Shown in pieces: positions 5,623 to 6,138 of a stretch of 64,000 bases of DNA. Position 1 is the stretch's first letter. Each line of letters starts with the position of its first letter. Location of the stretch: NCBI RefSeq assembly GCF_988243305.1, contig NZ_OZ547136.1; one strand, 5' to 3'. The translations under genes and the position numbers were made by a program. Below the pieces are notes generated by a model that saw only the letters and a program-made list of their open reading frames with translations, made no database searches and was not told the origin of the DNA.

Positions 5623-6138
5623 ATGGCGTTAACACACCACGAACTCTGTCAGATTGCGTACAAGTTCCTTAAGCGCAACGGGTTCAAGGTTTGCTTTCAT
5701 GACCGCTTTGTTGCTGTAACCAGTACCGGAGAACAGCCAGATGCTATGGGATTCAGAAATTCAGCATCATGCCTGATAGAGGCGAAGTGTTCTCGTGCTG
5801 ACTTGTTGGCAGATAGAAAAAAGCGTTTCCGTAAAAATCCCTCACTTGGCATGGGCGACTGGCGATTCTTTATTAGTGAGCCGGAAATTATTTCAGTTGA
5901 GGATTTACCTCCCGGCTGGGGATTACTTCACGTTGTTAACGGAAGAGTACGGAAAGTACATGGATGGCCCAGGGGTAATTGCTGTTGGGGTAATCCTGAC
6001 GATAAGCCATTTACTGGGAATAAGCAGGTTGAATGCGATTACATGTTATCTGCATTAAGGCGCATGGAGTTGAGAGGGCACCTTAATGAAATATATGACG
6101 GTGTGATTGTTAATAAGAAAGAAGGAAACGCGGCATGA
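5623..6138 (+). CDS. Putative PD-(D/E)XK-fold nuclease-like protein (171 aa)
   Basis: ATG 5623 with GGAGAG SD; motif GEQPDAMGF...CLIEAKCS. Confidence 0.5.
   Translation: MALTHHELCQIAYKFLKRNGFKVCFHDRFVAVTSTGEQPDAMGFRNSASCLIEAKCSRADLLADRKKRFRKNPSLGMGDWRFFISEPEIISVEDLPPGWGLLHVVNGRVRKVHGWPRGNCCWGNPDDKPFTGNKQVECDYMLSALRRMELRGHLNEIYDGVIVNKKEGNAA

Follow-up and report, generated by a model that had tools for sequence, protein, structure and literature searches.

The left arm of a lambdoid prophage whose integration site is yecE was examined in a stretch of 64,000 nucleotides from contig NZ_OZ547136.1 (assembly GCF_988243305.1), the whole of which is called the window here. Directly 3' of two Ea22-like genes it carries a gene for a protein of 171 amino acids, and sequence and structure comparisons suggest that this protein belongs to a large family of nucleases related to the DNA repair protein MmcB. 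The gene occupies positions 5623–6138 of the plus strand and runs from ATG to TGA in an intact frame, as read from both the open reading frame (ORF) list and the sequence. The preceding Ea22-like ORF (5136–5621) ends in a TGA (5619–5621) that is separated by a single nucleotide from the ATG of the nuclease gene, and the Shine-Dalgarno sequence AGGAG falls within the 3' end of that ORF. On the other side the stop codon shares nucleotides with the start codon of the following ORF (ATGA, 6135–6138), which is why we consider the nuclease gene and its neighbors a tightly coupled operon; the gene is translationally coupled to them. Compared with the copy found in phage P7 (12 synonymous and 5 non-synonymous differences), the ratio of non-synonymous to synonymous substitution rates (dN/dS) was about 0.10, indicating purifying selection. 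This was the only comparison used, as the ratio is not valid for loci that are 70–75% identical (indels, saturation). We can confirm that the ORF is a real gene under selection, with a conservation far beyond what chance would produce.

An initial annotation, made from the sequence alone, had proposed a candidate PD-(D/E)XK nuclease on the basis of two short motifs. Both were located, GEQPDAMGF at residues 36–44 (nucleotides 5728–5754) and LIEAKCS at residues 51–57 (nucleotides 5773–5793). Structure prediction and fold comparison, the check that had been suggested, came out in favor of the proposal, i.e., the nuclease core is present and homology to MmcB-like proteins was found. Two AlphaFold2 models, one built from a shallow and the other from a diverse alignment, agree with each other (predicted local distance difference test scores of 83.9 and 95.0, predicted template modeling scores of 0.78 and 0.88, respectively) and both contain the alpha1-beta1-beta2-beta3-alpha2-beta4 core of the PD-(D/E)XK nucleases. 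The modeled elements are a helix at residues 5–18, strands at 23–26, 41–45 and 48–54, a second helix at 58–64, a strand at 80–85, a hairpin at 100–113 and a long C-terminal helix at 134–150. In these models D40 is placed at the start of beta2 and E53-A-K55 at the end of beta3. The residues of the proposed signature are nearly invariant along 131 diverse representatives of the family, one for each cluster at 50% identity (D40 in 130 of 130, E53 and K55 each in 130 of 131), as are E37 (129 of 130) and an acidic residue, D or E, at position 27 (126 of 127). D60, D64, K67, R70, G78 and R81 are also invariant or nearly so, and the protein carries many conserved basic residues. The helix that follows beta3, S57-R70 (SRADLLADRKKRFR), is partly common with the MmcB motif ECKSSRADFxxDxKW and aligns with the segment IECKSSRADFQADAKW of the solved structure 3DNX; it is probably an element that contacts DNA or supports the active site. 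Taken together, the models and the conservation support a PD-(D/E)XK (restriction-endonuclease-like) fold with an intact predicted active site. Small PD-(D/E)XK nucleases are common in the early regions of phages. What is new here is a large unannotated family added to a well-known superfamily; the prediction itself is conventional and will not surprise a specialist.

The relationship to MmcB emerged only with profiles. Neither Pfam (no match even at E<=1) nor NCBIfam gave anything for the query protein, a single-query phmmer search of the PDB returned noise only, and PHROGs yielded families of unknown function plus a weak match to phrog_5429, a "DNA repair protein" (E 0.0046). A shallow profile reached 3DNX at a non-significant E of 0.58, and a diverse one at 1.6e-4. 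The stretch of 95 residues aligned in 3DNX (20–114) scores in turn as PF06319, "DNA repair protein MmcB-like," with an E of 2e-31. When the diverse profile of the family was compared by hhalign with 17 proteins of the MmcB family, the probability was 97.8% (E 1.2e-12) over 98 columns that include all the catalytic positions, pairing D27 of the query with E29, D40 with D39, E53 with E53 and K55 with K55, in addition to the segment S-R-x-D-F-x-x-D. Scanned singly, 41 relatives gave sub-threshold matches to PF06319 in 13 cases (best E 2.9e-4) and to Hjc, the archaeal resolvase family, in 23 (best E 1.3e-4). In the predicted viral structures of BFVD, Foldseek retrieved several phage entries whose name was already MmcB-like DNA repair protein. 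The protein is structurally similar to 3DNX, which is the solved structure of PF06319, but it does not reach the gathering threshold of PF06319 and lies outside this family as operationally defined.

Position by position, the MmcB-like proteins (PF06319, formerly DUF1052, with 3DNX being SPO1766 of Ruegeria pomeroyi and the Caulobacter crescentus MmcB another member) share with the query the catalytic acidic and D/E-x-K positions and the segment after beta3, E(C/A)K-S-R-x-D-F/L-x-x-D-x-K. However, the query is only 23% identical to 3DNX, and the phage family has an invariant E37 of its own, a characteristic insertion (K67-x-F-R70-x(5)-G-M-G-D-W-R) and GWGLL in place of ESGLL. The genomic setting differs as well, i.e., phage-borne and under phage early control in one case and a chromosomal SOS (LexA) gene of alphaproteobacteria in the other. 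The archaeal Hjc/Hje resolvases (PF01870) have a similar PD-(D/E)XK core and gave weak fold matches, and the query has no match to PF01870 at its gathering threshold. Lambda Exo/YqaJ, RecE, the Cas4-like exonucleases, VRR-NUC and DUF1064 share with the query the superfamily and the setting in phage early, recombination or replication regions. In contrast, they have no detectable sequence relationship with it (they were absent among the Pfam matches), and the query domain is smaller and devoid of the extra elements of the exonuclease type. From these sequence comparisons the protein is best described as a member of an unnamed, large and mostly phage-borne sister family of the MmcB-like nucleases, close to the MmcB and Hjc families.

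The family is widespread. The exact protein was found on at least 1000 contigs, and every time it was called a hypothetical protein. A profile search over 1.84 billion representatives retrieved 3219 clusters (50% identity) at E<=1e-3, and the stricter cutoff of E<=1e-10 still left 2421. Of the 5426 complete E. coli genomes, 927 (17%) carry the DNA of the gene itself, with up to six copies per genome and 248 of its 1296 places on plasmids, and it is also present in 335 phage records, mainly of Shiga-toxin (Stx) phages and P1-like phages. By tblastn the family extends to 642 phage records, including Stx1 and Stx2 phages, P7, Vibrio phages and Ackermannviridae. In VT1-Sakai the gene is located between an Ea22-like gene (H0066) and xis, 3' of gam-bet-exo-orf60a-orf63-orf61; in P7 it is upf89.0, which comes after an Ea22-like gene and 3' of a C1 operator for which regulation of the hea operon has been predicted. 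In the Vibrio phage X29 it lies among genes for an exonuclease, DUF551, DUF1064, RusA, Dam and SSB, and in virulent Ackermannviridae it adjoins the primase gene and is labeled "DNA repair protein" in some of them.

No conserved partner gene was detected by clustering the neighborhoods of 76 IMG/VR loci, the top neighbor family being present in just 18 of them. The recurring neighbors that Pfam could name were an Ea22-like protein, a calcineurin-like phosphoesterase, NinG and DUF7831, and those recognized by eye from their sequence were a CI-type repressor, integrases, DnaB and a replication protein. An Ea22-like gene just 5' of the nuclease gene, as in the window, is found also in P7, in VT1-Sakai and in a subset of the IMG/VR loci. 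The genomic contexts of two distant family members were uninformative. The protein appears to act alone, within early, replication or recombination modules. Some long homologs have extra parts (TniB-like, Ea22, DUF551, dATP/dGTP pyrophosphohydrolase), and the database entry P0122 either joins Ea22 to the nuclease in a fusion or is a merged gene call. Since Ea22 and DUF551 both occur as separate neighboring genes, the fusions with them are probably read-through or merged calls, and no domain fusion was used as a functional clue.

The slot occupied by the gene, with Ea22-like genes before it and xis and int after it, is that of the exo-xis genes of lambda (orf60a, orf63, orf61, orf73, ea22, ea8.5, orf55). 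Unlike the exo-xis genes that have been studied, of which it is not one, it codes for an enzyme-like protein and not for a small regulator. It is not mentioned in the exo-xis literature that we searched, including a modeling survey (PMC8614690). A tblastn search of phi24B, the model phage for exo-xis work, gave no match over positions 1–10000 of HM208303; lambda was not searched separately.

The reading that we favor, and hold to be somewhat more probable than all others, is that of a stand-alone, single-domain PD-(D/E)XK endonuclease of a sister family of MmcB, acting on damaged or branched DNA. The Caulobacter MmcB is described as a PD-(D/E)XK endonuclease that is induced in the SOS response, gives protection from mitomycin C and cisplatin and has been hypothesized to work with translesion polymerases on interstrand cross-links (PMC9578287). 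The phage protein would be made early after prophage induction or infection and would bind DNA with two of its helices, the conserved basic one and the C-terminal one. Phosphodiester bonds would then be hydrolyzed with one or two Mg2+ held by D27, D40 and E53, and K55 would place the water molecule for the attack. By analogy with MmcB and the Hjc-type enzymes, the substrate is probably damaged or branched DNA, such as stalled forks, cross-linked DNA or recombination intermediates, and not a specific sequence, and its cleavage may help the replication and packaging of the phage DNA. The initial annotation had left the role divided between recombination or DNA-end processing and defense or anti-defense. 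The sequence evidence leans toward DNA repair or the processing of branched DNA, without deciding among the roles.

Several points weigh against this assignment. The query is under the threshold of PF06319 and, since it is below every Pfam family threshold, the transfer of function from MmcB is a long-range inference toward a protein whose own substrate is biochemically undefined. In the literature searched we found neither biochemical or genetic data on any member of the family nor a study of a phage MmcB-like protein. The gene is part of a variable and dispensable accessory region of the exo-xis type, missing from phi24B, and such a location is as compatible with an accessory or conflict function as with repair. 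Finally, the carrier phages often encode also NinG/Rap or RusA, and because of this co-occurrence the protein is not required as the only junction-processing enzyme.

The location just mentioned also speaks for seeing in it an accessory conflict gene, that is, one for a prophage nuclease for defense or superinfection exclusion, or else one for anti-defense or host takeover. The region of the ea/exo-xis type in which it lies, from ea22 to xis, is mosaic and dispensable, the gene moves in a small cassette among prophages that otherwise differ and onto P1/P7-type phage-plasmids, and its spread is patchy, as the E. coli counts given above and the lack of a phi24B copy illustrate. Besides, many single-protein defense nucleases have the PD-(D/E)XK fold. 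However, none of the models of PADLOC-DB v2 matches it (0 families at E<=1), and no conserved adjacent sensor, immunity or methylase/modification partner is found among the 76 IMG/VR loci. An operon that is lytic and under the control of the repressor would probably be silent in the lysogen, homologs lie beside the primase gene in strictly virulent Ackermannviridae, and an unrestrained nuclease with no element to discriminate self from non-self is hard to square with defense. We consider such a conflict role unlikely but conceivable.

Rather doubtful too is that the protein works as an Hjc-type, dimeric resolvase of Holliday junctions and other branched DNA, resolving recombination or replication intermediates before packaging. 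The same phages can carry dedicated resolvases (RusA in the Vibrio phage X29, NinG/Rap in 13 of the 76 loci) and the structural score for Hjc is much lower, but there are several sequence links. To the sub-threshold Hjc matches of the single relatives we can add that the family profile weakly matches the Hjc chains 1hh1, 4tkk and 4tkd and the resolvase ST1444 (2eo0). The query has the spacing D-13-E-x-K, and so has the Hjc of S. solfataricus. It was, moreover, with the archaeal Holliday-junction resolvases that PF06319 (DUF1052) was first linked, when Kosinski et al. (2005) predicted that it is a PD-(D/E)XK family akin to these enzymes (PMC1189080).

A third alternative is a nuclease fold that is catalytically dead and whose part in the decision between lysis and lysogeny is to bind DNA or to regulate, a role reported for other exo-xis proteins. 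The neighboring exo-xis genes ea22, orf60a, orf61 and orf63 are reported to influence lysogenization and induction (PMC7093339; PMC3824215). A few members of the family have lost the E-x-K residues, as P0155, which has H and V there. Yet the catalytic residues are kept in 99–100% of the 131 divergent representatives, the pattern of an active enzyme, and the query has all of them, making a dead regulator very improbable. Lastly, a spurious ORF with a chance match is refuted by the thousands of homologs, the confident fold, the ribosome-binding site and coupling, the dN/dS value and the intact frame in both the window and the RefSeq locus; all that speaks for it is the shortness of the motif and one identical copy of the gene, which RefSeq marks as a "frameshifted" pseudogene.

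Coming back to the MmcB-like endonuclease, a bolder formulation, to which we would give little credence at present, is that the protein is a phage "self-repair" endonuclease that acts in SOS-triggered induction, or else a new single-gene conflict nuclease (defense or anti-defense). The damage that induces a prophage, such as cross-links or UV lesions, would also hit the prophage DNA, and an MmcB-type nuclease expressed first, from the early-left operon, could unhook or incise lesions or stalled forks, leaving a phage genome that can be replicated and packaged. If true, self-repair would be a widespread and unrecognized step of SOS induction, and the MmcB superfamily would have its first substrate defined. 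The assignment matters also in more modest terms. It concerns a "hypothetical protein" of about one sixth of the complete E. coli genomes, of many Stx phages and of the P1/P7 phage-plasmids, and gives an unstudied gene of the exo-xis-type region of Stx phages a concrete activity that can be tested; this region has an influence on induction and, through it, on the production of toxin. In addition, the family is a large, phage-borne sister of a repair nuclease that is biochemically undefined, for which the phage protein could be a convenient model.

The features of the left arm are listed in Table 1. The nuclease gene had been placed in an early-left operon, and this holds, with repressor-like and Cro-like ORFs, a promoter-like site and an unbroken series of plus-strand ORFs that leads to xis and int. 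A helix-turn-helix/CII-like protein and several proteins with no assigned function are also encoded in this arm. Pfam and PHROGs recognized none of exo/bet/gam, erf or recT in the left operon (1591–7400), where the MmcB-like protein is the sole recognizable DNA-processing enzyme besides Xis and Int. The two small ORFs that follow the nuclease gene resemble pieces or short forms of a longer "phage protein" or DUF551-type gene that is located at the same position elsewhere.

Table 1. Features of the prophage left arm and of the nuclease gene, in positions of the window.
Feature	Position	Strand	Basis or remark
Cro-like ORF	380–652	-	Assigned from translation
CI/LexA-like repressor ORF	780–1475	+	Assigned from translation
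Terminator-like site	1487–1503		Sequence
Promoter-like site	1539–1567	+	Sequence
Ea22/Ead-like ORF 1	4513–5139	+	Pfam PF13935, E 2.4e-13
Ea22/Ead-like ORF 2	5136–5621	+	Pfam PF13935, E 4.2e-31
Mosaic cassette (3' part of Ea22-like gene, nuclease gene, 5' part of next ORF)	5310–6277	+	blastn of window 1–12000 against the O104:H4 locus
Shine-Dalgarno AGGAG	5612–5616	+	6 nt before the ATG of the nuclease gene; read from sequence
CDS, MmcB-like PD-(D/E)XK nuclease-fold protein, 171 aa	5623–6138	+	ATG to TGA
Predicted catalytic core beta1-beta3	5701–5787	+	Conservation, MmcB alignment, modeled strands
Predicted catalytic codons	D27 5701–5703; E37 5731–5733; D40 5740–5742; E53 5779–5781; K55 5785–5787	+	
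Conserved helix after beta3, S57-R70	5791–5832	+	S57, R58, D60, D64, K67 and R70 kept in 90–100%
Small ORFs 3' of the nuclease gene	6135–6320 (61 aa); 6317–6661 (114 aa)	+	PHROGs 60, 3323, 660 (function not known)
xis (excisionase)	7147–7383	+	98% identity to annotated O104:H4 locus
int (tyrosine integrase)	7439–8752	+	Abuts yecE/DUF72; 98% identity to annotated O104:H4 locus

The O104:H4 locus used for reference in Table 1 is that of another E. coli prophage integrated at yecE, and its 98% identity also allowed the identification of a DUF4222 protein, yecN and cmoAB. At this locus there is an overlap of 19 nt between the integrase gene, at its 3' end, and the annotated DUF72 (yecE) gene, at its start (positions 12341–12359 of the locus, L001; 8752–8779 of the window). 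The insertion point of the prophage seems to be at the 5' end of yecE or inside it, and this gene may receive a new start from the prophage.

The two yecE prophages are otherwise different, and only two segments of the window matched by blastn, 5310–6277 (99.4% identity) and 6715–11706 (98.1%); the sequences before 5310 and between 6277 and 6715 differ. The first of these segments consists of the nuclease gene with parts of the two genes flanking it, and as nothing else is common to the otherwise different left arms, the gene can be regarded as a mobile mosaic cassette. The alignment gives a clear picture of lambdoid mosaicism, with recombination joints within the Ea22-like gene and within the ORF 3' of the nuclease gene.

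The annotation of several copies deserves comment. The O104:H4 copy (NZ_CP027394.1, 884778–885293; 9001–9516 of the locus) is a 100% identical ORF with its 171-codon frame intact, and it is labeled by RefSeq/PGAP as a "frameshifted" pseudogene that spans only the first 179 bp. The label is probably an annotation artifact that hides the gene in some genomes. The VT1-Sakai copy (AP000400.1, 52606–53116; 5001–5511 of its locus), which is unannotated, is split over two frames near residues 51–54, so that we are dealing either with a true pseudogene or with an error in an old sequence. Homologs are labeled "adenylosuccinate synthase" in several phage records (for example, Vibrio phage vB_VneS_J26, 3932–4720 of its locus), and upf89.0 of P7 (5001–5516 of its locus) appears as "minor tail protein" in the RefSeq record of this phage; given the nuclease fold, both names are almost certainly propagated mis-annotations.
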